From: a virus
IMG/VR virus record: IMGVR_UViG_3300045988_066757
Location: 1-11,589 of that record
Strand: one strand, 5' to 3'
DNA: 11,589 nt
Position numbers and translations under genes: made by a program. Shown here in pieces: positions 1 to 11,589 of the stretch (its first letter is position 1; the number at the start of each line of letters is the position of its first letter). The notes under the pieces were generated by a model, which was not told the origin of the DNA, searched no databases, and was given only the letters and a program-made list of their open reading frames with translations.

Positions 1-62
1 AAATATGCATAGCGACCTCTTTTTTAACATTTCCCAACACAGATTTAACACTAGCCAACACA

Positions 63-199
63 CTTTGGCACGCTTTTTGGTAGGTGCAATGCCACTCGAA
101 AGGCACGGCAGAAAAAATCTCTCTCGCCAACTTTGGCACGCTATTTGCATACCTCAAATGTTTTTGAAACTCGCCTTATTTGGCACGCTTTTTGCATAA
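63..199 (+). promoter_or_regulatory. Three direct copies of TTTGGCACGCTnTTTG(C/G); sigma-54 -24/-12-like elements or origin iterons (left ITR)
   Basis: TGGCAC-N5-TTGG at 66-80. TGGCAC-N5-TTGCA at 134-149 and at 181-196. Copies 2 and 3 extend to a 29-nt unit CTCGCC-N3-TTTGGCACGCTnTTTGCATA (123-151 and 170-198, 25/29 identical). All copies point inward, toward the 97-aa gene. Confidence 0.5.
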
Positions 200-242
200 A
201 GAAAAAAGATTTTTTATTTTAAGATTTATTAGTACAAAAAAA

Positions 243-274
243 TTTGCTATCACTCGTAAAAGTGTCTATCTTTG
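243..274 (+). promoter_or_regulatory. Bacteroidota-type housekeeping promoter (-33 TTTG / -7 TAnnTTTG) for the ITR gene
   Basis: TTTG at 243-246, a 20-nt spacer, then TATCTTTG at 267-274. This lies about 40 nt upstream of the ATG at 314, followed by an A-rich leader with no Shine-Dalgarno sequence. Confidence 0.6.
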
Positions 275-313
275 CACTATCAAATTAAAACAACAATTTA
301 AACAACAAACAAA

Positions 314-607
314 ATGAAGAAATCTTTTTTACGCGAAACGTCAAGATTACTAGCACAAACAAATGATAATCTAAGTTACGCGATTTCAGAGTTACGTGGT
401 AATGATACGTCTTTGCTTAAAGATATTCACGAAACATTAGAAAACATCGATGTTCTACTGCGATGTGAAGCAGATGGACGTGAAGCCCTAGAAATCGCTC
501 ACAAAAAAGAAATGTGGTTAAAAAATCAAGCATATTTTTTCATTCTTGACAGCGGTAATCTAGACGCTTTTCGAGAATATATTAAAGAGAACCCGAAAGA
601 ATTTTAA
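314..607 (+). CDS. Hypothetical 97-aa protein encoded inside the ITR (left copy); predicted mostly helical, function unknown
   Basis: ATG-initiated ORF with its own promoter and a downstream terminator. An identical copy lies at 10983-11276 (-). I recognise no motif. Confidence 0.8.
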   Translation: MKKSFLRETSRLLAQTNDNLSYAISELRGNDTSLLKDIHETLENIDVLLRCEADGREALEIAHKKEMWLKNQAYFFILDSGNLDAFREYIKENPKEF

Positions 608-613
608 TAAAAT

Positions 614-650
614 AACCGAAACGTAAAATTTTACGCTTCGGTTTTATTTT
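614..650. terminator. Bidirectional rho-independent terminator between convergent genes
   Basis: Stem AACCGAAACGTA (614-625) pairs with TACGCTTCGGTT (632-643) with one mismatch. It is followed by TTTTATTTT on the plus strand and by a T-rich run on the minus strand. It sits between the stop of the 97-aa gene (607) and the stop of the amidase gene (649). Confidence 0.7.
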
Positions 651-1053
651 AATTCAGTGGTAACAAACAAATTTTATTGAATGCTTCAATATCTTTTGCC
701 TTAAAGTTTGGGCAACTTTTATATTTGTTATAAGTGCAATGCCTTGTAACTTTTTTAATATCATATTGAGATATTAAGAAGTTACACACGTGCGCCAAAG
801 ATTCAATAACTTTTGCGGTCGGTTCTCTGCCGATGTAGGCAATACCTATGCTATTAGCGTTATGTCCTTTGCAGTGAGCACCTATTTCTATAATATTGCG
901 CCCTTTGTACCACTTGCCGTTAATATCAACTAAGAAGTGGTAGCCTATATCTCGCCACTTATTTACATTTACGTGGCACTTTCGTATTGCTTGCACGGTC
1001 GTGTTTGTCGGTGTATCGGTGCAATGTAAAATAATTTCGTTTATTTTTCGCAT
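649..1053 (-). CDS. N-acetylmuramoyl-L-alanine amidase endolysin (Amidase_2 / T7 lysozyme / PGRP fold)
   Basis: Blocks IILHCTDT, IGYHFLVD, GAHCKGHNANSIGIAYIG and RHC...KSCPNF match the zinc-ligand and catalytic blocks of T7-lysozyme-type amidases (His, His, Cys). It is the last gene of the late module. Confidence 0.9.
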   Translation of the reverse strand: MRKINEIILHCTDTPTNTTVQAIRKCHVNVNKWRDIGYHFLVDINGKWYKGRNIIEIGAHCKGHNANSIGIAYIGREPTAKVIESLAHVCNFLISQYDIKKVTRHCTYNKYKSCPNFKAKDIEAFNKICLLPLN

Positions 1054-1064
1054 AGTTTTAAAAT

Positions 1065-2657
1065 TTAAATTACATAAACACCACTATTAAGCAAATTATA
1101 AATTTGTTTTTGTTCTTCCTCAAGCATATTATGGGTGCTAATAATATCTACTGCATCAACCGAAACAAAACCCTTCAAATCGCCTAATACGCTGCGTTTG
1201 CTTTCATTGTTTCTAATATCGGATTTGCTTACATAAGAAGTAGCGTATAAATAAGGCTCTATTCCGTATAATGCGAAATCGTTCCAACTATCGCTACCTA
1301 CCTGCCTAATATCTTGTGATAGAGTTCTGTATATAACGTCTAAAGACGGTGTTATCTGCTCTACTTGGAAGACACTTCCATCACACGATAATTTTGCAAC
1401 TCCTTTACCTGTTATTATATTCACAACGTATTGTAGGTTTATTTCCTTGCCAACATATTCTTCGCTTAAAGAAACAAAACCTTTGAACGGTAGGAATATT
1501 TTAAAGTCGCTGGCATAGTCGGTTATATCCTTGTTTGGTGCCGGTACGGTAATACTACCATAGTCAAGCGTTATATTTTCAACCCCCGGAGTTTTTACAT
1601 TTATACCAGTATTATAGTTCCCTAATGATAGGGTACTTTCGCCGCTTTCGGTTATATCCGTGTATATCCTTTTAATGCTGCTTACATATTCGCCTATATC
1701 GATTGCCGTTCCCGTGCTTTGTATAAATCTTTGTTTCGCTAATTTGTCTAACGCAGCATCATTTACTATATAGACATTGATAGACCCGTATTTACCACCA
1801 ACGGGCGGCGTTGTGTCAGGCTTTGCACTTCCTGTAAGGTAATAATTACCTGAATTAGGGTCATTCACACCCTCATTCATTAACCACGAAAATACAGCCT
1901 TTTTATTTCCGTCCTGTAATGTGCTTTCAACTTCGTAATTGTCAAATGAAGATTCAAACGTAATTTTAGGTTTGCTTTCATTGTCGAATATATATTCAGT
2001 ATTAGCCGTTAGTGATATTGTTACTGGTTCTTTATCCTTGTAACGCTCTTTCAAGTTTTCAACGATACAATTTTCCGTTTGATTTTTTATTTTATACGAA
2101 CGTTCATAAGTTCCCGTTAACGTGATAGGGTAATCAAAATCAGCGTCATTTATAGTTATTTTAGCGTAGTGAGGTTGTGTCCCACTTATAACCATATTTA
2201 CAGATTTATCTAAATTGCCCTTATCTTTATAAGTCGCTTTAGCGTCAAAAAACCAATAGCCCACATTATCACCCGTAACGGTAATCTCTACTTGACTATC
2301 ATTTATAGTGTGTGATTCTGTCGTATCGGCAATTTCATTGTTTACCGTAACTTTCGGTACGGGTGTTCCCTCCTCGCTTTCGCCGTTTATAACTATATCG
2401 GGATAATCTTCGGGTGATAATTCAAGCCACGAAGAAACAGCCGTGTTTCCGTCTTCTGAAATTGTTAAATTATCTGTTTTTTCGTCACCCCATGTATAGT
2501 CATTATATACTAACGTGGGTTGCGGTTCTTTCTTTATAACCGTTCCTGTATTTGCTTTTACGGTAAATTGGTATTTACTTAAAAAACTACCCCCTTTCTT
2601 TTCTTCAAAAGTTACGGTTGTGTTAGGAATGTTATTTGTAAATTTAAAGTTTGCCAT
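1065..2657 (-). CDS. Tail structural protein, 530 aa; putative tail knob / receptor-binding protein
   Basis: Large beta-rich ORF downstream of the capsid gene. The start overlaps the upstream stop (TAATG at 2655-2659). The N-terminal half contains an internal duplication (DGNTAVSSWLEL versus DGNKKAVFSWLMN with similar flanks). The C-terminal half (FLPFKGFVSLSEEYVGKEINLQY ... FVSVDAVDII...EEQKQIYNLLNSGVYVI) reminds me of the C-terminal parts of phi29 gp9-type tail knob proteins; this is from memory and unverified. Confidence 0.8.
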   Translation of the reverse strand: MANFKFTNNIPNTTVTFEEKKGGSFLSKYQFTVKANTGTVIKKEPQPTLVYNDYTWGDEKTDNLTISEDGNTAVSSWLELSPEDYPDIVINGESEEGTPVPKVTVNNEIADTTESHTINDSQVEITVTGDNVGYWFFDAKATYKDKGNLDKSVNMVISGTQPHYAKITINDADFDYPITLTGTYERSYKIKNQTENCIVENLKERYKDKEPVTISLTANTEYIFDNESKPKITFESSFDNYEVESTLQDGNKKAVFSWLMNEGVNDPNSGNYYLTGSAKPDTTPPVGGKYGSINVYIVNDAALDKLAKQRFIQSTGTAIDIGEYVSSIKRIYTDITESGESTLSLGNYNTGINVKTPGVENITLDYGSITVPAPNKDITDYASDFKIFLPFKGFVSLSEEYVGKEINLQYVVNIITGKGVAKLSCDGSVFQVEQITPSLDVIYRTLSQDIRQVGSDSWNDFALYGIEPYLYATSYVSKSDIRNNESKRSVLGDLKGFVSVDAVDIISTHNMLEEEQKQIYNLLNSGVYVI

Positions 2658-3142
2658 TACTTATTACCTTTTATAGTTATCATTATCATTGTGCCTGTAT
2701 CATTCAATAGACCCATATTCGGAAACGGTACTTTTTCAAAGTGCGGCGTTCTTGAATATATGCTTTGCCTTGTGGATATGTATTTATCGGGGTCGTCAGA
2801 CAACACAACATGTCCCGTGGTCCTCAATATATCAGTTTCATACGTTTTTAGCACGTCCACAGATAGAAAAATTTCATAAGTAGAATTCCCTATAAATTTA
2901 ACGCTATCCACGAAATAAAAGCGTTGTAAACTATCTATTTTGCAGTAGTTGAATGTTGGTGCTGCTTGTAGTCTGACAAGCAAAACGGGGTGTAAAACGT
3001 CAAATGTTTTCCATAAAGTACAATCTAAATCAGTTGGCGAAGAAAGATTTTTATTTATTACTTTAGAATCTCCGTTATAGTTGTAAAAATGTATTGTTTC
3101 CATATCTGTATAAAATTTAAAGGGTAGGTAGTTATTAACCAC
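2657..3142 (-). CDS. Tail structural protein, 161 aa or shorter; possible tail-knob N-terminal-domain homolog
   Basis: ORF directly after the capsid gene and translationally coupled to the 530-aa gene. The segment RFYFVDSVKFIGNSTYEIFLSVDVLKTYETDI resembles the N-terminal signature of gp9-type tail knob proteins as I remember it. The listed start at 3142 is GTG and lies inside a hairpin. The first ATG is at 3103 (METIHF...), so the start is uncertain. Confidence 0.7.
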   Translation of the reverse strand: MVNNYLPFKFYTDMETIHFYNYNGDSKVINKNLSSPTDLDCTLWKTFDVLHPVLLVRLQAAPTFNYCKIDSLQRFYFVDSVKFIGNSTYEIFLSVDVLKTYETDILRTTGHVVLSDDPDKYISTRQSIYSRTPHFEKVPFPNMGLLNDTGTMIMITIKGNK

Positions 3143-3148
3143 CTACCC
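3122..3148 (-). terminator. Candidate attenuator/terminator hairpin after the capsid gene
   Basis: GGGTAGGT (3122-3129) pairs with ACCTACCC (3141-3148) around an 11-nt loop. In minus-strand sense it is followed by TTTAAATTTTAT. It lies 33 nt downstream of the capsid stop and overlaps the GTG at 3142. Confidence 0.3.
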
Positions 3149-3180
3149 ATTCACAAAACAACAATTTTAATAACCCAAAT

Positions 3181-4353
3181 TTAGGCTACAAAGAACACAA
3201 CAAAGTTTTCGTTGGTGTCGTTAAAATAACCTGCGTCAAACTTATAGTAATTATTGAAAAACTCTGCTTTTGCATTGTAGTTCGTTGTTACTCTTCGGTC
3301 GATGTTGCACACCCCGAGAGCGTCGCGGTCAAACATCACACCAAGAACGCCACTAATATCTACGTTTTGCCCGCTCGTCTCCTTGATGTTAATGTGTGCC
3401 GTACTTGCGAACTCGTAGTTTTTACCGCTACCTTGCCAAAACGGAATTGTTTCTGCATTCGGCAAGAGTACTTGGTCTTTGTTGTAGCTATCCGCGTATA
3501 GGTAAGTTCTTGCGGCTTTCTCGAAGTCAGACAAAAGAACAACGTGCAAATTGTCTTTAGGTGTGAAACGTGGCTTACCTCCTACGTTAAACGCACTTGA
3601 AATTGACGCCAAACGGTCGCTATACAAACCGATTGTATATGAAGCGAATTTAATGAAATCGGGGTCGGTTAGTGCTTTGTCAGCGGTAATAGTTGCGCCC
3701 TTTTGGTCGTTGTACAACTTTAGTAGGTTCACACAACGAGCGGTAGACCCTTTAGTATAATCCGTACCCTTGGCACCAGCAAAAGCGGCAGAATCTGCAA
3801 TGAGAGTTTCAGCAATCATGTTGTTGATGGTTCGCATAATTAACGCGTCTGTCTTAATTGTGATAGACTTTTCTACCGCATTATAAATCATTGAGTAGAA
3901 AGCGTTAAGTTGTTCAGAGTTACTGAAAGATTCTTTCACCTGTCGTTCTGTAATAGAAACGGCTACTTCAAAAGTAACTTTTGAATTAAAGAATTTTGCA
4001 GTAACAACGGGCTTATGGAATACATCCTGCGAATATGTTTGCCCGTCTGTCAATTCCCAACTTTTGTTTTCTTCGGCTTCGGGAATATCGGCATTTATCT
4101 TTTCGAGAACGCTGCCGAACTCCCAACTATCCATGAGAACGGAAGGAATTTTACCACTATAAGGGCGGTTAACAAATACCACTTTGCCGATGTGGTTAAC
4201 CAAAGATTTAACGTAATTGTCTACCGCATTTTGGTTAAACACTTCTTTACCCAAATCGACCAAACCAGTTAAATCTTCGGTTACAAGGTCTGTGTTACCT
4301 AGAACTTCTTTAGTTACGCTGTTAAGTAGTTCGTAAATTTGATTTACTTGCAT
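3181..4353 (-). CDS. Major capsid protein (HK97-fold type, phi29 gp8-like core without an Ig-like C-terminal domain)
   Basis: A 390-aa ORF in the canonical portal - scaffold - capsid position with its own strong promoter. Blocks such as DNYVKSLVNHIGKVVFVNR and QLNAFYSMIYNAVEKSI are reminiscent of podoviral capsid proteins (from memory). Confidence 0.75.
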   Translation of the reverse strand: MQVNQIYELLNSVTKEVLGNTDLVTEDLTGLVDLGKEVFNQNAVDNYVKSLVNHIGKVVFVNRPYSGKIPSVLMDSWEFGSVLEKINADIPEAEENKSWELTDGQTYSQDVFHKPVVTAKFFNSKVTFEVAVSITERQVKESFSNSEQLNAFYSMIYNAVEKSITIKTDALIMRTINNMIAETLIADSAAFAGAKGTDYTKGSTARCVNLLKLYNDQKGATITADKALTDPDFIKFASYTIGLYSDRLASISSAFNVGGKPRFTPKDNLHVVLLSDFEKAARTYLYADSYNKDQVLLPNAETIPFWQGSGKNYEFASTAHINIKETSGQNVDISGVLGVMFDRDALGVCNIDRRVTTNYNAKAEFFNNYYKFDAGYFNDTNENFVVFFVA

Positions 4354-4364
4354 AATATAATATT

Positions 4365-4934
4365 TTAGTAAATTGATTTTGTTATCTCATTTATAATTGC
4401 AAAGATAATATTTTCGCGCCAGTTTTTCAAACTAAATTGAATTTCTTTTTGTAGTTCGTCCGTGGCTGATTTTCCATTTAACCCCGTCACTACTTCGGTT
4501 ACTTCGGTTTTGTTCGTTCGCGTTTTGTCGCTTGTGTTATTGTCTTTGTCGTATTCCTCAAAAGTCGTAGTATTAAACGGCTTATTTGATGATACGTTTG
4601 TGTTAATGTTGTTCTCGCTCTCTGTAGCGTTATTTGTTTTTGTAGTGGTTTTATTCGTAGGTTTTAGCACGTTATACGTGGTATTGTACGCATCAGCCAC
4701 TTTTACCCAATTCGGGAGCATTAAGGCAATAACATTTTTAGCGTAGTTGTTTGCGTTTTCGCTTGTTATGGTGTTTAATACTTCTTTTTCTCCGTATTTC
4801 AAAAGTACTAAAGTATCAAGCCCTACACTATCCAATTCACCGAAAATTTTTGTGTATTGGTCGGGGTAATTCGCTTTGAATACCTTTGTAAATAACCCGT
4901 TTTGTGGGTCGGGGTATAACTCAATTATTTTCAT
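4365..4934 (-). CDS. Hypothetical 189-aa protein in the scaffold / head-tail adaptor position
   Basis: ATG ORF between the portal and capsid genes that overlaps the portal stop by 14 nt. It has a central N/T/K-rich low-complexity linker and helical ends. The function is inferred from position only. Confidence 0.75.
   Translation of the reverse strand: MKIIELYPDPQNGLFTKVFKANYPDQYTKIFGELDSVGLDTLVLLKYGEKEVLNTITSENANNYAKNVIALMLPNWVKVADAYNTTYNVLKPTNKTTTKTNNATESENNINTNVSSNKPFNTTTFEEYDKDNNTSDKTRTNKTEVTEVVTGLNGKSATDELQKEIQFSLKNWRENIIFAIINEITKSIY
4400..4431 (-). promoter_or_regulatory. Bacteroidota-type promoter for the capsid gene, embedded in the 3' end of the upstream gene
   Basis: Minus-strand sense: TTTG (4431-4428), a 20-nt spacer, TATCTTTG (4407-4400), then about 45 nt to the capsid ATG at 4353. 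The octamer and spacing are the same as in the ITR promoter. Confidence 0.6.
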
Positions 4935-5958
4935 TTTCTTTTCTTTTTTCTTCGTTCTTTTCTTCGTCTGTTTCTGTTTCTGTTTCTGTTTCCGTTTCTG
5001 TTTCTGTTTCTGTTTCTGTTTCCGTTTCTGTTTCCGTTTCTGTTTCCGTTTCGGTGTCGTTTACTTCTTTTTCTTGTTCACTAGCATTTTGTTCGTTTTC
5101 TGTTTCTGTTTCGTTTTTACGTATTGCCCAACTGCTACCCAATTCAACGCTAATTTCAGTACCAAACATTTCGTTTATTTTGTCTACTGCCTTTTTACGT
5201 TCTTGTAGCATATTATCTACGTATGGGTTCAAAGCGTCTACGTTCATTTGCACCTCGGATGTGTTAAGCCGTTCGCGCTTTAAATTGTAGTTTGCATTTA
5301 AGCCTATTTCATTAAACGCGCTAGCTTTGAAATACTGCAAAAGTTCTATTAACTGCCCTATTTGGTTTGCGCTTTGTGTGTTAATGCTTTGCAGATTTAC
5401 ACCCTTAAAAAATGCGTTTTCGCCAATTACGGAGAAATCCCCGTTTAAAATACGCGTTATAAATTCGTCCGCGCTTTGCTTTGTTTTATCATCGCTCGCA
5501 CTGATTAGCATTGTAATACGAGAGAGCACCGAGCACGTATTTAACGATAAAAGCGTATCAGAGCACAAAACCCCATATTTGCCGAAAATCGGTAAAAGAC
5601 TATTTGCGCCACTATCATTTTTTATAAGAATGCCATCTATACCTATTTTGTAGGTTTTATTTAAATTTAAATAGGGATTCGCCACTACGTATTCGGTTGG
5701 GTTGTTGTACACATCAGGAGTGCCACCCAAACCGCCCGTAAAAGCATACATTTTGCCGTCTACCTCTGTTACAAAAACGTTGCCGTTTGTCTGTAAAAGT
5801 CTTTCAAGTTCGTTTTGTGGCAAAGTATCGGGCAAACCTTTGTACACAAACATTGCTTGAGTTATAGCCAACATTTTGCGAATGTAGCTATTTACGCTTT
5901 TATCTTTGCCTTTTATTTCTTCTTGATATTTTAGGTAATAATTATCCTTCTTTGCCAT
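4921..5958 (-). CDS. Head-tail connector / portal protein (phi29 gp10 upper-collar type) with a long acidic repeat tail
   Basis: A 345-aa ORF. Blocks LPDTLPQNELERLL, GGTPDVYNNPTEYVVANP, NYNLKRERLNTSEV and RKKAVDKINEMFG line up with my memory of gp10-type connectors. It is located upstream of the scaffold-position and capsid genes. The C-terminal ~70 aa are acidic low complexity. Confidence 0.8.
   Translation of the reverse strand: MAKKDNYYLKYQEEIKGKDKSVNSYIRKMLAITQAMFVYKGLPDTLPQNELERLLQTNGNVFVTEVDGKMYAFTGGLGGTPDVYNNPTEYVVANPYLNLNKTYKIGIDGILIKNDSGANSLLPIFGKYGVLCSDTLLSLNTCSVLSRITMLISASDDKTKQSADEFITRILNGDFSVIGENAFFKGVNLQSINTQSANQIGQLIELLQYFKASAFNEIGLNANYNLKRERLNTSEVQMNVDALNPYVDNMLQERKKAVDKINEMFGTEISVELGSSWAIRKNETETENEQNASEQEKEVNDTETETETETETETETETETETETETETETDEEKNEEKRKENENN
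4969..5055. repeat. Hexanucleotide tandem repeat (YGTTTC)x14.5 encoding (TE)14T in the portal C-terminus
   Basis: Fourteen and a half consecutive TGTTTC/CGTTTC units on the plus strand. They are in frame on the minus strand as alternating Thr (ACA/ACG) and Glu (GAA). A shorter ETETE stretch is encoded at about 5098-5115. Confidence 0.95.
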
Positions 5959-6145
5959 AGATGTTTTTTATTAAATTTGTTAACTCTGAAAGTACCTTTG
6001 TATTTTCTTCTAAGGTACCCCGTAAATGTTCCGTTTCTTCTGCGTGCTTTGTGTCTTGCTTTGCCATGTAATAGAAAACAAGTAAACACATACCAATTGG
6101 AAAACCTACGTTTGAAATAAGTTGGGTTAATTCTGTAATATCCAT
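5942..6145 (-). CDS. Small single-pass membrane protein, YvrJ-like; possible holin
   Basis: MDITELTQLISNVGFPIGMCLLVFYYMAKQD followed by a charged helical tail. The NxGFPI motif plus a hydrophobic helix resembles the YvrJ family (from memory). The track starts the ORF at a GTG (6172), but the predicted -7 box ends at 6175, so the ATG at 6145 is the more likely start. It overlaps the portal start by 17 nt. Confidence 0.6.
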   Translation of the reverse strand: MDITELTQLISNVGFPIGMCLLVFYYMAKQDTKHAEETEHLRGTLEENTKVLSELTNLIKNIYGKEG

Positions 6146-6174
6146 ATTTGGAAATTTAAAAGTTAATAACACTA

Positions 6175-6206
6175 CAAAGATAACGTATTTATTTCACACT
6201 CACAAT
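6175..6206 (-). promoter_or_regulatory. Bacteroidota-type promoter upstream of the small membrane protein and portal genes
   Basis: Minus-strand sense: ATTG (6206-6203), a 20-nt spacer, then TATCTTTG (6182-6175). The -7 octamer and spacing match the ITR and capsid promoters; the -33 box is one mismatch from TTTG. Confidence 0.5.
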
Positions 6207-7301
6207 GTTAGAACGTGCTGAAGTCATTAAATAATTTCGTACAATTTCCCCAACTTCGTTATTTTGATAAAATACCTTGTCAGTGGCGAAATATCTTGTT
6301 ACTTGTGACTCAATGTAAGTAGCTGTACTTATTAGTTTTCGCTTGTAGTTCGGTTTTCCGTTCATTTCTAGCGAATATATTAAAGCGTTATCGTCTTTTA
6401 TTGGTGTGGTTTTGATGTGGATGTATGTAAAATTTTCGTTTCCTTTTTGTATGATGTTTCCTTGTAAAATTACTTCGTTAAACACAATGTAATAGACAAA
6501 TAAAACATCTTTAGGGGTGTATTTTGTTGGCAAATGTGGATAGGCAGCCAATTCCCATTTACCGCCCGTAATCATCTGTAAATTTTGATTATCGAAACAG
6601 AAATATTTATTACTTGCTTTCTGCTTTACAATCGTACTACAATATTCGACCGCTACCACCGCGCCACCTTGACCGAACTTGTAAATGTCTATCGTTCCTT
6701 GCTCCATGTTGGTTACTTGCTTTAGACCCATTTCGGAAAAGTAGGGGCAATATTTATTTATAGTATTACCGAGCATAAACACCTTTACATTATCCCTTTG
6801 TCGTATTATGGTGCTAAGTAAGTTCATAAATAACATAAATTCATCGGGTAAATAGTACCTACGTGTGAGAAATTCGTCAAAGATTATTGTAGTAACATTC
6901 GGATAACTGCTACTTTTTTCGTGCTCTTGTTCTGACAGACAAAAACCATAACAAAACGGGGTAGTTTGTGGGTAATACTTTTTCTTTTCTGAATCGTACT
7001 TAGCAAGATACCATTTTCCCGAAATGTAAAAGATTGTGTTAAATTCTCCGTTCGTTAACTTTGTTATTTCATCATTCGCAACATGATTTGCAAAAAGGTT
7101 TTCGGCTCTCTTACCGCGTAAATCTTCGCGCCACCTACGGATATATGCCATTTGTTCACCCGTTGAGACATACCTCTTTAAACCATACAAAAGGGCTGCA
7201 TAGGTTTTGCCGTTGGAACGCTCTCCAAATATAATATTATAGTCTGCTTTTTTATTTAGTATCTTTGTGAGCGAATAAAATTTATTTTTTTCTTGTTTCA
7301 T
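6189..7301 (-). CDS. DNA encapsidation (packaging) ATPase, phi29 gp16 type
   Basis: Walker A is FGERSNGKTYA and the Walker B-like block is YPNVTTIIFDEF. Blocks GEQMAYIRRWREDL and RDNVKVFMLGNTINKYCPYF follow the order I remember for gp16-family ATPases. There is no separate small terminase. Confidence 0.9.
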   Translation of the reverse strand: MKQEKNKFYSLTKILNKKADYNIIFGERSNGKTYAALLYGLKRYVSTGEQMAYIRRWREDLRGKRAENLFANHVANDEITKLTNGEFNTIFYISGKWYLAKYDSEKKKYYPQTTPFCYGFCLSEQEHEKSSSYPNVTTIIFDEFLTRRYYLPDEFMLFMNLLSTIIRQRDNVKVFMLGNTINKYCPYFSEMGLKQVTNMEQGTIDIYKFGQGGAVVAVEYCSTIVKQKASNKYFCFDNQNLQMITGGKWELAAYPHLPTKYTPKDVLFVYYIVFNEVILQGNIIQKGNENFTYIHIKTTPIKDDNALIYSLEMNGKPNYKRKLISTATYIESQVTRYFATDKVFYQNNEVGEIVRNYLMTSARSNIVSVK

Positions 7302-7305
7302 TTCT

Positions 7306-7339
7306 GTTTTGTTTTAAGTGTTCCACGTGGAACGGGTTA
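7306..7339 (-). promoter_or_regulatory. Conserved upstream element, copy 1, containing the perfect palindrome GTTCCACGTGGAAC (7320-7333)
   Basis: Minus-strand sense: TAACCCGTTCCACG-TG-GAACACTTAAAACAAAAC, ending 4 nt before the ATPase ATG. It shares two identical 14-nt blocks with 10943-10977. Confidence 0.5.
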
Positions 7340-7341
7340 AT

Positions 7342-9528
7342 TTAATCTTTTAATTTTATACCTCTCAAATAGTTTAAATACATAATACTTAGTGATAGGT
7401 TGTAATTCGTTGGCTCGAGATGAACACCGCTATTTTCAACAAAGTTACTTTTATTTCCTAAATAGTCGGTAATTACTCCTTGTATTTTATAATCTATGTA
7501 TGTGTGTATGTTTTTGCCCGTGGCTTCGTTTGGAATTTCTAGGTAATTAGTGAAAGCGTTAAAAATGTCGTCCCCGTACTTTTTAACTAGGTAGGGAATG
7601 GCGGTTTTTTTATTTACCCCACTAATTGTAAGGCTATATTTATAACTTTGCCCGTCTACCTTTAGTGCGTTTTCTTCTTCTACCATGTAGCGTTTTGCTC
7701 CCAATGTTTTAAAGTGTGTGTAAACACCCTCAAAATCCCACACACCGAGCACCTTTGTAACTCCTTTAATAGTTTCGGGTTCGCACTTTTCAAAAGAAAT
7801 ATTGTGATATTTACATGCTGCTTTCAATTTGTTATATACTACATTGTTGTATGTGTCAAAATACTTTTTGTGCTTATCAGCGTTTTTTAGTTTTATGCTA
7901 TCCGTATCGCTGTAAATGTAATCATCTTTCGCTTCATAAATAGCGGTGAATAAATTTCTCCTAGCGTAAGCCGTAACGAAAACCCCCCACGGATAGAACA
8001 AAAATCGGTTTTTGCTATCATTGTATTTTTGTAACATTTCCGCTTTTTCTCTATCGGTTAACGTGTTAGTATCCCATTTGCCGTTATATGTAAATTCGTC
8101 ACGGAGTGGGTTTGTAACACACATTCCATAGCAAGAATTAAGCATTTCTTTACTATTCAAATATTCTACTTCTTTCCCTTGCACGCCCTTTAATTTGGTT
8201 TTGCTTTCGTATAGGTCTAGAATGGTATTTATAAATTCGGTGGGCAAATAATCTGCTTTGTAAATGTACATTGTGCCAATTCTGATTTTACCCCACTTGT
8301 AGAACATTTTTATAACGTTGTAATCTATATTTGTTAAGGTGGTGCAAATCTTTTCAGCACACACCACACGCCCGTTGTTTTCTACTACTTCTTTTTTCAA
8401 AAAGCACTTACTTACGCTTATTGGATTATCTTGCAATTCACTTGCAAAAATATCGGTAAATTCTACGTCAAAAATGCAAAGGTAGTTTTTTATATAGTAC
8501 TCAAATTCTCGCATATTTCGGGGGTTTACTTTTACGCCCTTACTCATTGGGAATTTTTCAGATATCATAACATATGGGTAGCTGCTTGTAAAATCGTAGC
8601 TAGATATGTTTGTACAAATTTTGTCCACGTGGTTTGCATTCGCATGTGTGAACCCACCACTAAAAGCACGTTGCAACATGTTAAATTCATGTAGCCCGTT
8701 TATGTTTAGAGAGTGAATTAAATTTATACATTCCCAATTACGAATACTTTTGCCGTTTATATTCTTTTGGAGCATATTTTTACGGCAATGTTTACGTACA
8801 AAACCCGTTTTAGTGAGTGGTAGCCGTGTAATGAATTTGTATTGTTCTAGTTGTTCCTGTATGTAGTTCATAACCACGCGAATATCGTTCACACAGTACA
8901 TCAATTCTTTTGTGCTTAGTGGTGTTTTTGAGTGTCTTAAAAGTGTGTAGTCTAAATCTCCAACTAATTTAGCGCACTTGTACTTCTGTAGTTGTTCCCC
9001 CAATTTGGCAAGGTTGTAACCGCTTAACAAGTAACTACAACGAAACTCTATACCGTCTTTTGTTATTGCGTAAATGGGTTTTCTTAAATCAATACTAAAA
9101 ACTTTTTCCCACTCAAACAAAGTGCGTATAAATTGAAATTCGTATGATAAATTGTGAATGTAAATTATTATTCTTTTATCTTTATTTAGGCTTAATTTGC
9201 GGACTATTACAGAGCACATTTTTATAAACTCATCCCACGTACGACCTACAATTATATACCCGTTTATTCCGAATTGCCACACGTACATAGTACTACACTT
9301 TTCCAATTTTGTACCTAGTTTTGCGTATTGTTCGTAGTTGTACGTGCTGCCATCCTTACCACGATAAAAAGATGTTGTTTCAATATCGAATGCGCATGGG
9401 ATGTTATAGAATTTAGTTCCCTTGTTATTGCCTATTACATTTTTATCATTTACAGCATTATCTAGTACTTCTTCTATGTCTGTAGAATTGTAAATATTAT
9501 TTCGTTGTTCATATTGAATTTTTTTCAT
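7342..9528 (-). CDS. Protein-primed family-B DNA polymerase
   Basis: ExoI is AFDIETTS, ExoII is IHNLSYEFQF and ExoIII is YCVNDIRV. Motif A is SYDFTSSYP (Dx2SLYP), motif B is KEMLNSCYG (Kx3NSxYG), motif C is YSDTDS, and the KxY motif is GAKRY. At 728 aa there is room for TPR1/TPR2-type insertions. Confidence 0.95.
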   Translation of the reverse strand: MKKIQYEQRNNIYNSTDIEEVLDNAVNDKNVIGNNKGTKFYNIPCAFDIETTSFYRGKDGSTYNYEQYAKLGTKLEKCSTMYVWQFGINGYIIVGRTWDEFIKMCSVIVRKLSLNKDKRIIIYIHNLSYEFQFIRTLFEWEKVFSIDLRKPIYAITKDGIEFRCSYLLSGYNLAKLGEQLQKYKCAKLVGDLDYTLLRHSKTPLSTKELMYCVNDIRVVMNYIQEQLEQYKFITRLPLTKTGFVRKHCRKNMLQKNINGKSIRNWECINLIHSLNINGLHEFNMLQRAFSGGFTHANANHVDKICTNISSYDFTSSYPYVMISEKFPMSKGVKVNPRNMREFEYYIKNYLCIFDVEFTDIFASELQDNPISVSKCFLKKEVVENNGRVVCAEKICTTLTNIDYNVIKMFYKWGKIRIGTMYIYKADYLPTEFINTILDLYESKTKLKGVQGKEVEYLNSKEMLNSCYGMCVTNPLRDEFTYNGKWDTNTLTDREKAEMLQKYNDSKNRFLFYPWGVFVTAYARRNLFTAIYEAKDDYIYSDTDSIKLKNADKHKKYFDTYNNVVYNKLKAACKYHNISFEKCEPETIKGVTKVLGVWDFEGVYTHFKTLGAKRYMVEEENALKVDGQSYKYSLTISGVNKKTAIPYLVKKYGDDIFNAFTNYLEIPNEATGKNIHTYIDYKIQGVITDYLGNKSNFVENSGVHLEPTNYNLSLSIMYLNYLRGIKLKD

Positions 9529-10172
9529 AAGCCGAATTTACCTAACGCACTTAGTAGGTCATTTACTAGTCCTTTTATTTCGTTTTCTGCTTTGTTAACT
9601 GTTTCGTTAGCCTTGTTTTCTATATCCCGTTGTAACGCGTTTTCAAGGCTTACCGCATCGCTTTCTATTTGGCTACTAACATCTGCCGCTTCGCTCTCTA
9701 ATTCACCGGTAAAATCTTTGTAGCGCATTAAATACTTTTCTACAAAATCGCTATCGGAAATACTTTGCAACTTGTCGTTAATCTTATCCGACATCAAATT
9801 AAATTCTTCGTCGGTAAGCTCGTACGCTCTTTTTATATGTTCATTATATTGCAGAGTGCCTCTAGCAGTGCTTGTTGGTTGCCTTAAAAAGGCTATTGCT
9901 TTCGCGTATTCACGTTTTAATTCTTCCCAAGATAATTCACCTACTGCAAACTTACTGAATCCATCTATATTGCCTCTATTTAATGCCTTAACCGCGGGGC
10001 TTAAAAGTCCTGCGCTTTCTATGTTTTCTATTCGTCTGTTTGCTTGATGAAAAACCCTCCTTATTTCTTTACGTAGTTCGGGGTTACTTTCAGTGGCTGA
10101 AATAATTTCTTTTTTTAGTTTTTCCCTTTCTGTGGATGAGAAAACAGATTTAGTGAATGCAATTTTTGGCAT
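9525..10172 (-). CDS. Candidate terminal protein (priming protein), 215 aa
   Basis: Lies immediately upstream of the protein-primed polymerase and overlaps it (ATGA at 9525-9528), as TP genes do in phi29-like phages. It has a basic helical N-terminal part and a Ser/Asp/Glu-rich C-terminal part. The function is inferred from position and composition only. Confidence 0.75.
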   Translation of the reverse strand: MPKIAFTKSVFSSTEREKLKKEIISATESNPELRKEIRRVFHQANRRIENIESAGLLSPAVKALNRGNIDGFSKFAVGELSWEELKREYAKAIAFLRQPTSTARGTLQYNEHIKRAYELTDEEFNLMSDKINDKLQSISDSDFVEKYLMRYKDFTGELESEAADVSSQIESDAVSLENALQRDIENKANETVNKAENEIKGLVNDLLSALGKFGL

Positions 10173-10178
10173 AGTATT

Positions 10179-10210
10179 AAAATTAAAAGGGAGGGAGAAA
10201 ACCCCCTCCC
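10179..10210 (-). terminator. Rho-independent terminator (minus strand) after the 117-aa gene
   Basis: Minus-strand sense: GGGAGGG (10210-10204), loop GGTTTTCT, CCCTCCC (10195-10189), then TTTTAATTTT. The GC-only stem stands out in an AT-rich genome, and there is no T-run on the plus strand. Confidence 0.7.
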
Positions 10211-10218
10211 GATGTTAT

Positions 10219-10572
10219 TTACTTATCTTTGAAAGTGATTGTGTAACAATCTTTACCGTGGCTCTCGTACTTTCGTACGATAAAACCTACTTTAGACATA
10301 CGGATAGCTTCTACGGCTTCCGCGTCTTTTACAATGTCGTTAAATACCTTTGTAAGGTTTAAAGGCATGTCTACGCGCTTTTTAAAGGACTTCATTACAA
10401 CTACCACCTTAACGCCAAATTTACCGCGCGTAAAGTAAAAGCCATCTAAAGAATGTACCTTATTTCCGTCTTGGTTGTACAACTCTTTAAGAGTGGTAAA
10501 GGTGTATCCGTCAAAATTGAAAATGAATGGGTTCTCGTTTCCCGGGTTGTACTTTTGTGAAAAACTTGTCAT
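10219..10572 (-). CDS. Hypothetical 117-aa early protein; candidate single-stranded DNA-binding protein
   Basis: ATG ORF in the replication module, upstream of the TP and polymerase genes and followed by a strong terminator. Its beta-rich pattern and size are reminiscent of phi29 p5-type SSBs (weak, from memory). Confidence 0.8.
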   Translation of the reverse strand: MTSFSQKYNPGNENPFIFNFDGYTFTTLKELYNQDGNKVHSLDGFYFTRGKFGVKVVVVMKSFKKRVDMPLNLTKVFNDIVKDAEAVEAIRMSKVGFIVRKYESHGKDCYTITFKDK

Positions 10573-10583
10573 AACTTAAATTT

Positions 10584-10757
10584 TTATTTAATATTGGTGA
10601 TGTGTTCATTACCTAGTGAAATAAGGTAATTTCTAAACTTAGAGATTTTAAGAAGTGTGCGAGTATTCGCACTTACTTCGGGGGTAGTCATAAGTTGACC
10701 GAGTGACGCGCAAGCGGTAAAAATTGCGTCATCAAATTGGTTTTGTTCGTTGTTCAT
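10584..10757 (-). CDS. Small hypothetical protein, 57 aa (absent from the supplied ORF track)
   Basis: Hand translation: MNNEQNQFDDAIFTACASLGQLMTTPEVSANTRTLLKISKFRNYLISLGNEHITNIK, stop TAA at 10584-10586. Its ATG overlaps the TGA of the upstream 61-aa gene (ATGA at 10754-10757). It fills an otherwise empty 180-nt gap in a tightly packed genome. Confidence 0.5.
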   Translation of the reverse strand: MNNEQNQFDDAIFTACASLGQLMTTPEVSANTRTLLKISKFRNYLISLGNEHITNIK

Positions 10758-10939
10758 TTCTTAGGGTATTTGAATAAATTAGTGTGTTTAATAAAAGTGG
10801 TGTCTGTTGTTACTATGGTCGCTTTGCCGTTTATTTCTGTATCGTGATACATCTTGCACGAAGTTACACAAAACAAAGCACACAAAAGACAAAAGTACAA
10901 AATAGTACCTGCTAAGCACTTTAAAAATGTTTTTTTCAT
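10754..10939 (-). CDS. Small predicted lipoprotein / secreted membrane-anchored peptide, 61 aa
   Basis: N-terminus MKKTFLKCLAGTILYFCLLCALFCVTSC has a basic start, a hydrophobic core and a Ser-Cys lipobox-like end. The mature part would be about 33 aa. It is the first gene after the right ITR. Confidence 0.7.
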   Translation of the reverse strand: MKKTFLKCLAGTILYFCLLCALFCVTSCKMYHDTEINGKATIVTTDTTFIKHTNLFKYPKK

Positions 10940-10942
10940 TAC

Positions 10943-10977
10943 GTTTTGTTTTAAGTATTCAAACGTGGAACGGGTTA
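10943..10977 (-). promoter_or_regulatory. Conserved upstream element, copy 2, straddling the inner ITR boundary
   Basis: Minus-strand sense: TAACCCGTTCCACG-TTT-GAATACTTAAAACAAAAC, ending 3 nt before the ATG at 10939. The 14-nt blocks GTTTTGTTTTAAGT and CGTGGAACGGGTTA (plus strand) are identical to those in copy 1. Confidence 0.5.
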
Positions 10978-10982
10978 TTTTA

Positions 10983-11276
10983 TTAAAATTCTTTCGGGTT
11001 CTCTTTAATATATTCTCGAAAAGCGTCTAGATTACCGCTGTCAAGAATGAAAAAATATGCTTGATTTTTTAACCACATTTCTTTTTTGTGAGCGATTTCT
11101 AGGGCTTCACGTCCATCTGCTTCACATCGCAGTAGAACATCGATGTTTTCTAATGTTTCGTGAATATCTTTAAGCAAAGACGTATCATTACCACGTAACT
11201 CTGAAATCGCGTAACTTAGATTATCATTTGTTTGTGCTAGTAATCTTGACGTTTCGCGTAAAAAAGATTTCTTCAT
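10983..11276 (-). CDS. Hypothetical 97-aa protein encoded inside the ITR (right copy)
   Basis: Identical translation to 314-607 (+). Unlike the left copy, no terminator follows it before the downstream genes. Confidence 0.8.
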   Translation of the reverse strand: MKKSFLRETSRLLAQTNDNLSYAISELRGNDTSLLKDIHETLENIDVLLRCEADGREALEIAHKKEMWLKNQAYFFILDSGNLDAFREYIKENPKEF

Positions 11277-11315
11277 TTTGTTTGTTGTTTAAATTGTTGT
11301 TTTAATTTGATAGTG

Positions 11316-11347
11316 CAAAGATAGACACTTTTACGAGTGATAGCAAA
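11316..11347 (-). promoter_or_regulatory. Bacteroidota-type promoter (right ITR copy); likely the main rightmost promoter of the minus-strand gene array
   Basis: Mirror image of 243-274 (TTTG, 20 nt, TATCTTTG). Confidence 0.6.
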
Positions 11348-11390
11348 TTTTTTTGTACTAATAAATCTTAAAATAAAAAATCTTTTTTCT

Positions 11391-11527
11391 TTATGCAAAA
11401 AGCGTGCCAAATAAGGCGAGTTTCAAAAACATTTGAGGTATGCAAATAGCGTGCCAAAGTTGGCGAGAGAGATTTTTTCTGCCGTGCCTTTCGAGTGGCA
11501 TTGCACCTACCAAAAAGCGTGCCAAAG
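11391..11527 (-). promoter_or_regulatory. Three sigma-54 -24/-12-like / iteron motif copies (right ITR)
   Basis: Mirror image of 63-199. The individual elements lie at 11510-11524, 11441-11456 and 11394-11409, all pointing inward (leftward). Confidence 0.5.
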
Positions 11528-11589
11528 TGTGTTGGCTAGTGTTAAATCTGTGTTGGGAAATGTTAAAAAAGAGGTCGCTATGCATATTT

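Follow-up and report, generated by a model that had tools for sequence, protein, structure and literature searches.

The virus record IMGVR_UViG_3300045988_066757 of IMG/VR, analysed here at its full length (positions 1 to 11,589, hereafter the window), is the complete linear genome (11.6 kb; 11589 bp) of a small phi29-like, protein-primed podophage related to Astrithrvirus. It carries two perfect inverted terminal repeats (ITRs) of 617 bp, each of which holds a promoter and one whole small gene, p97, encoding a protein of 97 residues. The ITRs of protein-primed phages are usually treated as short, non-coding origins, and this is the only genome with a whole gene inside the ITR among the relatives that we examined. 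The likely explanation, in our judgement, is that 617 bp at the early end of this Astrithrvirus-related phage were recently copied, in inverted orientation, onto the late end, and that the p97 protein acts on the host.

Genes that are diploid in terminal repeats are familiar from other linear replicons. In poxviruses, Streptomyces linear replicons and the phages T5 and SPO1, whole genes, often with early or host-interaction roles, lie in the terminal repeats, and the boundaries of these repeats expand and contract by recombination between the ends. Those replicons differ from the window in being much larger; moreover, the repeats of T5 and SPO1 are direct, and poxvirus ends are hairpins that are not protein-primed. 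Closer in replication mode are Streptococcus Cp-1, Mycoplasma P1, PRD1 and the haloarchaeal His2, whose ITRs extend over hundreds of base pairs and serve as origins at both ends. To our knowledge those ITRs are non-coding, whereas the window duplicates a complete promoter-gene unit and devotes 10.6% of its genome to the repeat. Among phi29-like and other protein-primed tailed phages we are aware of none that has such a unit in its ITR, nor did the literature searched report one. The novelty lies in this placement of a complete promoter-gene unit in the ITR of a protein-primed tailed phage; diploidy of genes in terminal repeats, and boundaries that move, were already known elsewhere.

Extent and content of the terminal repeats

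When the window was compared with itself, positions 1-617 proved to be the exact reverse complement of positions 10973-11589 (100% identity), and similarity between the two arms ended sharply at base 618. The left or late-end ITR (1..617, + strand) and the right, polymerase-end or early-end ITR (10973..11589, - strand) together account for 1234 of the 11589 bases. Each arm encloses a complete promoter, open reading frame (ORF) and stop codon, the promoter at 243-274 and the ORF at 314-607 on the left with their mirror images on the right, and the two ORF translations are identical. The original prediction, made from the sequence alone, had described 617-bp ITRs with a complete promoter-gene cassette that occupy about a tenth of the genome, and had named an exact alignment of the two arms as the way to check this; the description stands in full. 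So does its view that the repeat is unusually long for such phages, given that ITRs measure 84-219 bp in cultured relatives, at most 383 bp in metagenomic relatives and 6-16 bp in the phi29-like phages of Bacillus (PMC6266182; PMC11476376).

The promoter is of the Bacteroidota -33/-7 type, TTTG-N20-TATCTTTG (243..274, +; mirror 11316-11347). Its TTTG box (243-246), 20-nucleotide (nt) spacer and TATCTTTG box (267-274) match the Bacteroidota sigma-A consensus, taken here as TTTG, 19-21 nt and TAnnTTTG, and neither box varies among 10 aligned clade-A relatives, which bears out the promoter as originally predicted. A sigma-70 consensus scan of positions 1-1200 returned 3 sites against 4.8 expected in shuffled sequence and was discarded as uninformative for this type of host.

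Relatives were gathered by means of polymerase patterns (53 loci), p97 homologues and a conserved 23-mer from the ITR, yielding 100 unique genomes or near-genomes, among which we distinguish clade A and clade B (polymerase about 67% identical). Statistics on ITRs refer to the 35 of these 100 in which both termini were verified. There, the ITRs span 155-383 bp; the median is 198 bp for the perfect ITR and 328 bp for the extended ITR, and both reach 383 bp at most. Characteristically, the outer 100-380 nt of the repeat are perfect and the inner part has decayed. None of the 100 relatives contains two p97-family genes. The closest of them (L054; L numbers are our handles for individual loci) is about 85% identical to the window in nucleotide sequence. 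Its ITR, of about 200 bp, stops just inside the third of the repeated boxes described below and lies directly after the tail-gene terminator; L054 has a single copy of p97 and no amidase gene. An intermediate state is seen in L003, whose perfect ITR of 361 bp takes in the promoter and the first 40-50 nt of the p97 gene. In most clade-A relatives the promoter lies outside the ITR and at the early end only. Clade-B ITRs extend approximately to the start codon of the first early gene, and both genome ends have a promoter that points inward, so that promoters within the ITR are a common feature of the group. The question raised with the original prediction, whether relatives share the gene and the ITR boundary, thus has a divided answer: the p97 family and its promoter are conserved, but the 617-bp boundary and the second gene copy are absent from them.

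The window starts AAATATGCAT, with the AAA terminus at base 1. In relatives, Illumina adapter is joined directly to the same terminal sequence, to AAATATGCA in L004 and to AAAGGTACA in L019, L038 and L043, at both ends in all four, and because of this direct fusion we take base 1 to be a physical DNA end. Adapter also remains at one end of L035; its presence in IMG/VR contigs is a contamination of public records, yet one that marks true DNA ends.

Both boundaries of the repeat are supported, at the contig level, by two other assemblies. A megahit contig in ENA (ERZ27272201 k141_160263), present in 2 samples, is exactly 617 bp long and identical to window positions 1-617. A terminal repeat that has been collapsed comes out of a de Bruijn assembler in just this form, bounded by the genome terminus at one edge and by a branch point at the opposite edge. 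The Logan contig SRR3993060_49875 corresponds to window positions 588-4996; it spans the left junction, between the amidase terminator and the 3' end of p97, and ends 30 nt inside the repeat, the overlap to be expected if Logan assembles with k=31, as we presume it does. An exact 32-mer spanning this junction was absent from IMG/VR. At the right junction, the order of ITR, promoter, p97 and early genes is the same in every clade-A relative.

The two copies of p97 are identical in themselves but differ in transcript context because their 3' surroundings differ. The left copy (314..607, +) is monocistronic and is followed by a bidirectional terminator hairpin (615..644), shared with the amidase gene, at whose foot the ITR boundary lies; its folding energy is -14.6 kcal/mol on the + strand (z -4.0) and -18.9 kcal/mol on the - strand (z -6.2). 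Downstream of the right copy (10983..11276, -) there is no stable hairpin (-4.6 kcal/mol, z -0.8), and the next gene follows 44 nt further on in a leftward gene train as long as the genome. If both are expressed, the left copy would be a terminated stand-alone unit and the right copy the first cistron of the early operon. That p97 is the first gene downstream of the terminal promoter at both ends had been foreseen; the original prediction had overlooked the different 3' contexts of the copies, the single-copy state of p97 in every relative and its location at opposite ends in the two clades.

Origin of the long repeat

In this group, the ITR ordinarily consists of a conserved origin of about 80 nt and a few repeated boxes, accompanied in one clade by operator-like palindromes and an inward promoter. 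We propose that in the window the 617 bp at the polymerase end, comprising the origin, the boxes, the promoter and p97, were copied in inverted orientation onto the late end, where they replaced the old terminus. The join may lie within AAAATAACC, the last 9 nt of the ITR (609..617, +), a putative crossover microhomology common to the 3' untranslated region (3'UTR) of p97 and the A-tract of the amidase terminator. This sequence is native to the p97 3'UTR, as similar A-rich runs follow the gene in L054, L058 and L062. The copying could have come about by a template switch of a nascent strand primed at the early end or by illegitimate recombination between the ends. Its outcome would be two identical p97 cassettes with different outputs, the left unit converging on the late and lysis genes and being insulated from them by the bidirectional terminator.

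That the event is recent is suggested by the perfect identity over 617 nt with its abrupt edge, while the ITRs of relatives are perfect in their outer part and decayed in their inner part. Inner decay of this kind is what would be expected if homogenisation works inward from the ends. A precedent is provided by adenovirus, whose ITRs are repaired and homogenised between the ends during strand-displacement replication. Perfect identity in the window could accordingly reflect recency in combination with the end-homogenisation usual in protein-primed replicons. The original prediction had concluded that the identity of the arms implied active homogenisation or strong selection; given the abrupt edge and the decayed relatives, a recent event is the simplest account and neither is needed.

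Several considerations weigh against this account of the repeat. No relative carries the amidase gene, so the earlier state of the late end and the join by microhomology cannot be reconstructed from them, and the gain of the amidase gene and the extension of the ITR could be one event or two. The arrangement is present in one genome only and may be a transient neutral variant. Finally, the evidence for the repeat at both ends is drawn from assembled contigs.

Selection for the diploid state is the alternative that we take most seriously, although we regard it as rather improbable. Carrying p97 at both ends could be advantageous through a double dose or through immediate expression whichever end enters first. 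The promoter and the ORF are intact in both copies, the left copy has its own terminator, and members of the p97 family invariably lie in a cassette that faces inward from one of the two genome ends; in phi29, the end that enters first is the right one, which bears early genes. However, not one of the 100 relatives keeps two copies, and the perfect identity and abrupt edge fit a recent event equally well.

The copying event might also be one instance of a more general process, an idea that we advance only tentatively. Expansion and contraction of ITRs may shuttle accessory cassettes between genome ends, in which case the window would be a captured two-copy intermediate. Expansion would copy a promoter-gene unit from near one end to the opposite one, and the gene would have been relocated once one of the copies had decayed or been lost. 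Such a process would explain why clade A has the p97 family at the polymerase end and clade B has it at the opposite end.

It is very unlikely that an assembler wrongly mirrored the early end onto the late end of a genome whose true ITRs measure about 200 bp, an artefact that had been named with the original prediction as grounds for abandoning it: the arrangement is seen in only one full-length contig, metagenome assemblers can produce inverted duplications and the evidence is at the level of contigs rather than reads, but the two independent assemblies behave as for a true repeat, the terminal sequence is that of the adapter-fused physical ends of relatives, and an assembler is unlikely to have been misled at a join whose two sides have only 9 nt in common, far below any k-mer size.

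The p97 family and its probable role

The protein encoded in the repeat belongs to a family of 185 clustered proteins, all unnamed and all encoded on contigs of no more than about 11.8 kb. The size of the family, an AlphaFold2 model of p97 with a pLDDT of 91 and a long-range omega of 0.40 establish p97 as a real gene family. In the model, helices span residues 3-26, 33-80 and 83-92. The protein is acidic, with an isoelectric point (pI) of 5.2, and has neither a signal peptide nor a transmembrane segment. Against close relatives its omega is 0.44-1.06, compared with 0.01-0.2 for the polymerase, ATPase and capsid genes, and it is the fastest-evolving gene in the genome.

Searches of Pfam, PHROGs, NCBIfam and PDB sequences, and Foldseek comparisons with PDB and BFVD, returned nothing informative, in keeping with the original observation that p97 has no recognisable motif; the sequences matched in PDB were those of designed coiled coils, and no Foldseek comparison gave an E-value better than about 1. 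A hidden Markov model search found no p97 homologue in the cultured Astrithrvirus genomes. When a p97 profile was run against 1.84 billion representatives, the family was extended only through a C-terminal module, and a metagenome scan with a narrower alignment gave no confirmed relative. Long profile matches in multiple stretches were rejected as kin, as they resemble coiled-coil or repeat noise; ten of them were scanned in Pfam and showed no significant domain.

The C-terminal module comprises about 40 residues (approximately 57-95) with the motif E-x3-KN-x-AY-x-FI-x3-G-x2-D-x-F-x2-Y. It occurs by itself in many proteins of 60-77 residues that form an unannotated family (P0136-P0277). Three of these module-only proteins were traced to their loci (L184-L189), which are a Flavobacterium integrative island, an integrase-primase island and the early region of a phage, next to pRha. 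Some database ORFs that contain the module extend upstream over a conserved non-coding element.

The clade-B counterparts of p97 are proteins of 82 residues whose homology with the clade-A family members is shown by hhalign (probability 96%, E 3e-9). Family members face inward in both clades, from the polymerase end in clade A and from the opposite end in clade B, and the clade-B homologue always begins 2-4 nt after the gene for an M15 peptidase (endolysin). The late-end cassette of clade B (L014-L053; for example L043 10381-11253, - strand) consists of genes for a protein of 64-67 residues, the M15 peptidase and the p97 homologue, with the promoter in the ITR. In L014, the first gene of the cassette encodes a small lipoprotein, like the 61-residue protein encoded beside p97 in the window.

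We regard p97 as a three-helix accessory protein that probably acts on the host rather than on phage DNA. Host interaction is our best guess, being a better fit than origin binding for a helical protein that is acidic and evolves fast; origin binding is unlikely because p97 is variable and acidic and yet lies beside a near-invariant origin. The original prediction had offered host takeover, anti-defence and origin binding as roles; with an origin core that is nearly invariant and a protein with omega of 0.4-1.06 and a pI of 5.2, origin binding is disfavoured, and host takeover or anti-defence is a plausible candidate role. Two points tell against a role in host takeover. The omega values near 1 against the closest relatives could reflect relaxed constraint rather than an arms race, and the constant position of the clade-B homologue directly after the endolysin gene hints at a role linked to lysis.

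In its full form, this second point makes p97 a lysis-associated factor, a partner or regulator of the endolysin, and not an early host-takeover protein, a proposal to which we assign a low probability. Besides the invariable clade-B linkage, with its lipoprotein, M15 and p97-like order in L014, the right copy of p97 in the window adjoins a lipoprotein gene and the left copy faces the amidase gene. Most clade-A genomes, however, have p97 without a separate endolysin gene beside it, the protein lacks the signal peptide or transmembrane segment noted above, and stand-alone homologues of its C-terminal module reside in integrative islands without lysis genes.

Still less probable, in our opinion, is that p97 binds the ITR, either as an origin-binding protein like phi29 p6 or as a repressor, with the TTTGGCACG boxes or the TTCCACGTGGAA palindromes as its sites. 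The gene adjoins both kinds of element, the protein is small, helical and, to judge from the model, possibly dimeric, and in other phages its C-terminal module is found beside regulators such as pRha. In comparison with p6-type proteins there is no match in sequence or fold, nor was any DNA-binding fold matched; the protein is acidic; the fastest-evolving protein of the genome would have to recognise near-invariant boxes; and the clade-B gene lies far from the early-end sites and is coupled to the endolysin gene.

The genome beyond the cassettes

The conserved part of the ITR is its origin core (1..80, +; mirror 11510-11589), which consists of the AAA terminus, TTTAACATTTCCCAAC, TTTTAACA and a box, TTTGGCACGCTTTTTG / TTTGGCACGnTTTTTG, at a fixed distance from the end. 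The core is near-invariant in clades A and B despite polymerases that are only 67% identical. Box 1, with the motif TTTGGCACGCT(T/A)TTTG (62..80, +; mirror 11510-11528), lies at a fixed distance from both ends; it starts about 44-108 nt into each contig of the relatives, some of which still carry adapter. The repeated box TTTGGCACGCT(T/A)TTTGCA faces inward and keeps its distance from the termini in both clades. Box 2 (130..151, +; mirror 11439-11460) is less conserved and is degraded in several relatives, and box 3 (177..198, +; mirror 11392-11413) is confined to the subclade of the window.

All three boxes resemble the sigma-54 -24/-12 consensus TGGCACG-N4-TTGC with its GG-N10-GC spacing. 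Box 2 (TGGCACG-N4-TTGCA) and box 3 match it perfectly and box 1 has one mismatch, and 6 such matches were observed where 0.16 would be expected by chance. The -12 GC is not conserved, however: box 1 has a conserved spacer, but its final base can be C, T or G depending on the genome. The stretch between the DNA end and box 1, where an enhancer-binding activator would have its upstream sites, measures only about 60 nt. Because the final C varies, the boxes are no less likely to be auxiliary sites at which a protein binds the origin than to be sigma-54 promoters, and recruitment of host sigma-54 RNA polymerase to the genome ends by these fixed-position boxes seems doubtful. The adenovirus ITR has a comparable layout, with a core origin at the terminus and, at set distances inward, auxiliary boxes to which proteins bind, but adenovirus is a eukaryotic virus with unrelated factors (NFI, Oct-1) and its ITRs hold no genes. 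The likeness of TTGGC/ATTTGCAT to the NFI and Oct-1 sites was set aside as coincidence.

Two further ORFs in the ITR, at 5-199 and 180-317, were rejected as spurious. The first, of 64 codons (5-199, +; 11391-11585, -), starts 5 nt from the DNA end with an ATG inside the terminal AAATATGCA; its conservation follows the origin DNA, and similar ORFs occur in L001 and L004. It leaves no room for a promoter and is probably a by-product of conserved origin DNA.

A degenerate TTCCACGTGGAA near-palindrome (10960..10972) directly abuts the inner edge of the right ITR, and an intact one lies at 7320-7333. The element recurs as TT(C/T)CACGTGGAA. Clade-A genomes have one or two copies in the interval that separates p97 from the early gene after it, and some have one between the polymerase and ATPase genes. 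Clade-B ITRs contain 1-3 tandem copies on the upstream side of the promoter. In L018-L046 copies lie about 157-290 from both ends, and in L003 they are at 642 and 665. The element looks like an operator for a regulator.

All genes of the window except the left copy of p97 are on the minus strand. Pfam matches identify the major capsid protein (3181-4353, -; PF25622, E 2.5e-52), the connector (4921-5958, -; PF05352, E 3e-16), the gp16 packaging ATPase (6189-7301, -; PF05894, E 2e-22) and a B-family DNA polymerase of the protein-primed type (7342-9528, -; PF03175, E 2e-11). A small holin-like protein is encoded at 5942-6172 (-), and a 215-residue ORF directly upstream of the polymerase gene, without a family match, is the putative terminal protein by position. 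The next early gene after the right p97 copy encodes a predicted lipoprotein of 61 residues (10754..10939, -) with a signal peptide and cysteine pattern, conserved in clade A. At 4929-5066 (-), a TTTCTG/TTTCCG tandem repeat gives the connector protein a long acidic (TE)n tail at its C-terminus.

These features, together with ITRs at physical ends that have a reiterated terminal base, place the window among phi29-like and Astrithrvirus-like phages. Its nearest cultured relatives by polymerase are those of Astrithrvirus (42-46% identity), and a megablast search of the whole window against INPHARED phages gave no match. The Astrithrvirus group (Salmonella phages Astrid/astrithr, Acinetobacter phage Phanie and Pectobacterium phage DU_PP_III) resembles the window in its genomes of 11-12 kb with ITRs and in its gene order of small early genes, putative terminal protein, DNA polymerase, ATPase, small membrane protein, connector, capsid, tail knob and lysin. 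The ITRs of the group, however, measure 84, 171 and 219 bp and are non-coding, its hosts are Proteobacteria, unlike the probable host of the window, and the hidden Markov model search found no p97 homologue in it. Phanie has been reported to need the tail of a helper phage (PMC11476376). With phi29, the window has in common a protein-primed replication module, a reiterated AAA terminus that allows sliding-back, and homologous capsid, connector and ATPase proteins. The early operons of phi29 likewise face inward from both ends. Its ITR contains neither gene nor promoter where that of the window has both. Packaging of the phi29 type normally requires a packaging RNA (pRNA). No Rfam match to a pRNA or other RNA was found in the window at E <= 1, and the database records of the cultured Astrithrvirus phages carry no pRNA annotation.

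The host is probably a member of the Bacteroidales, judging from the promoter type, the A-rich leader sequences free of Shine-Dalgarno motifs and the amidase, most of whose 36 genomic relatives are in Bacteroidales metagenome-assembled genomes. Several relatives of the phage come from human gut and wastewater assemblies. The Amidase_2 endolysin gene (649..1053, -; Pfam E 1e-16) is found in this genome only, being absent from all 63 related loci compared; most clade-A relatives show no separate endolysin gene. Its nearest relatives on viral contigs are at most 47% identical and belong to unrelated large phages, and on the best reading of these comparisons the gene was newly gained by horizontal acquisition. 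Other parts of the genome also differ in history. Against L058, synonymous divergence (dS) is 0.07-0.35 in the early 1.4 kb and 0.4-1.0 in the remaining genome, the stretch of low dS at the early end covering 314-1371 in reverse orientation (10219-11276). The tail gene (1065-2657) is 84% identical to that of L003 at the amino acid level and only 33% identical to that of L058. The genome is a mosaic, and recombination is frequent in the group, in keeping with the proposed exchange between the ends.

For completeness calls based on terminal repeats, the window offers a worked example of a true ITR that fragments in de Bruijn assemblies. The p97 protein, widespread, fast-evolving and unannotated, is a candidate early host-interaction protein, one module of which recurs in small proteins from Bacteroidota phages and integrative elements. 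As this genome shows, the boundary of the ITR can shift far enough in the smallest tailed phages to enclose a promoter and a whole gene, with the result that the gene is duplicated and a new transcription unit arises at the far end. If cassettes are indeed shuttled between ends in this way, a host-interaction protein that evolves fast could, for as long as two copies exist, be produced regardless of which end enters first. ITR expansion, together with a p97 family that has swapped ends between clades, provides a specific, testable route by which linear protein-primed genomes could relocate accessory genes.

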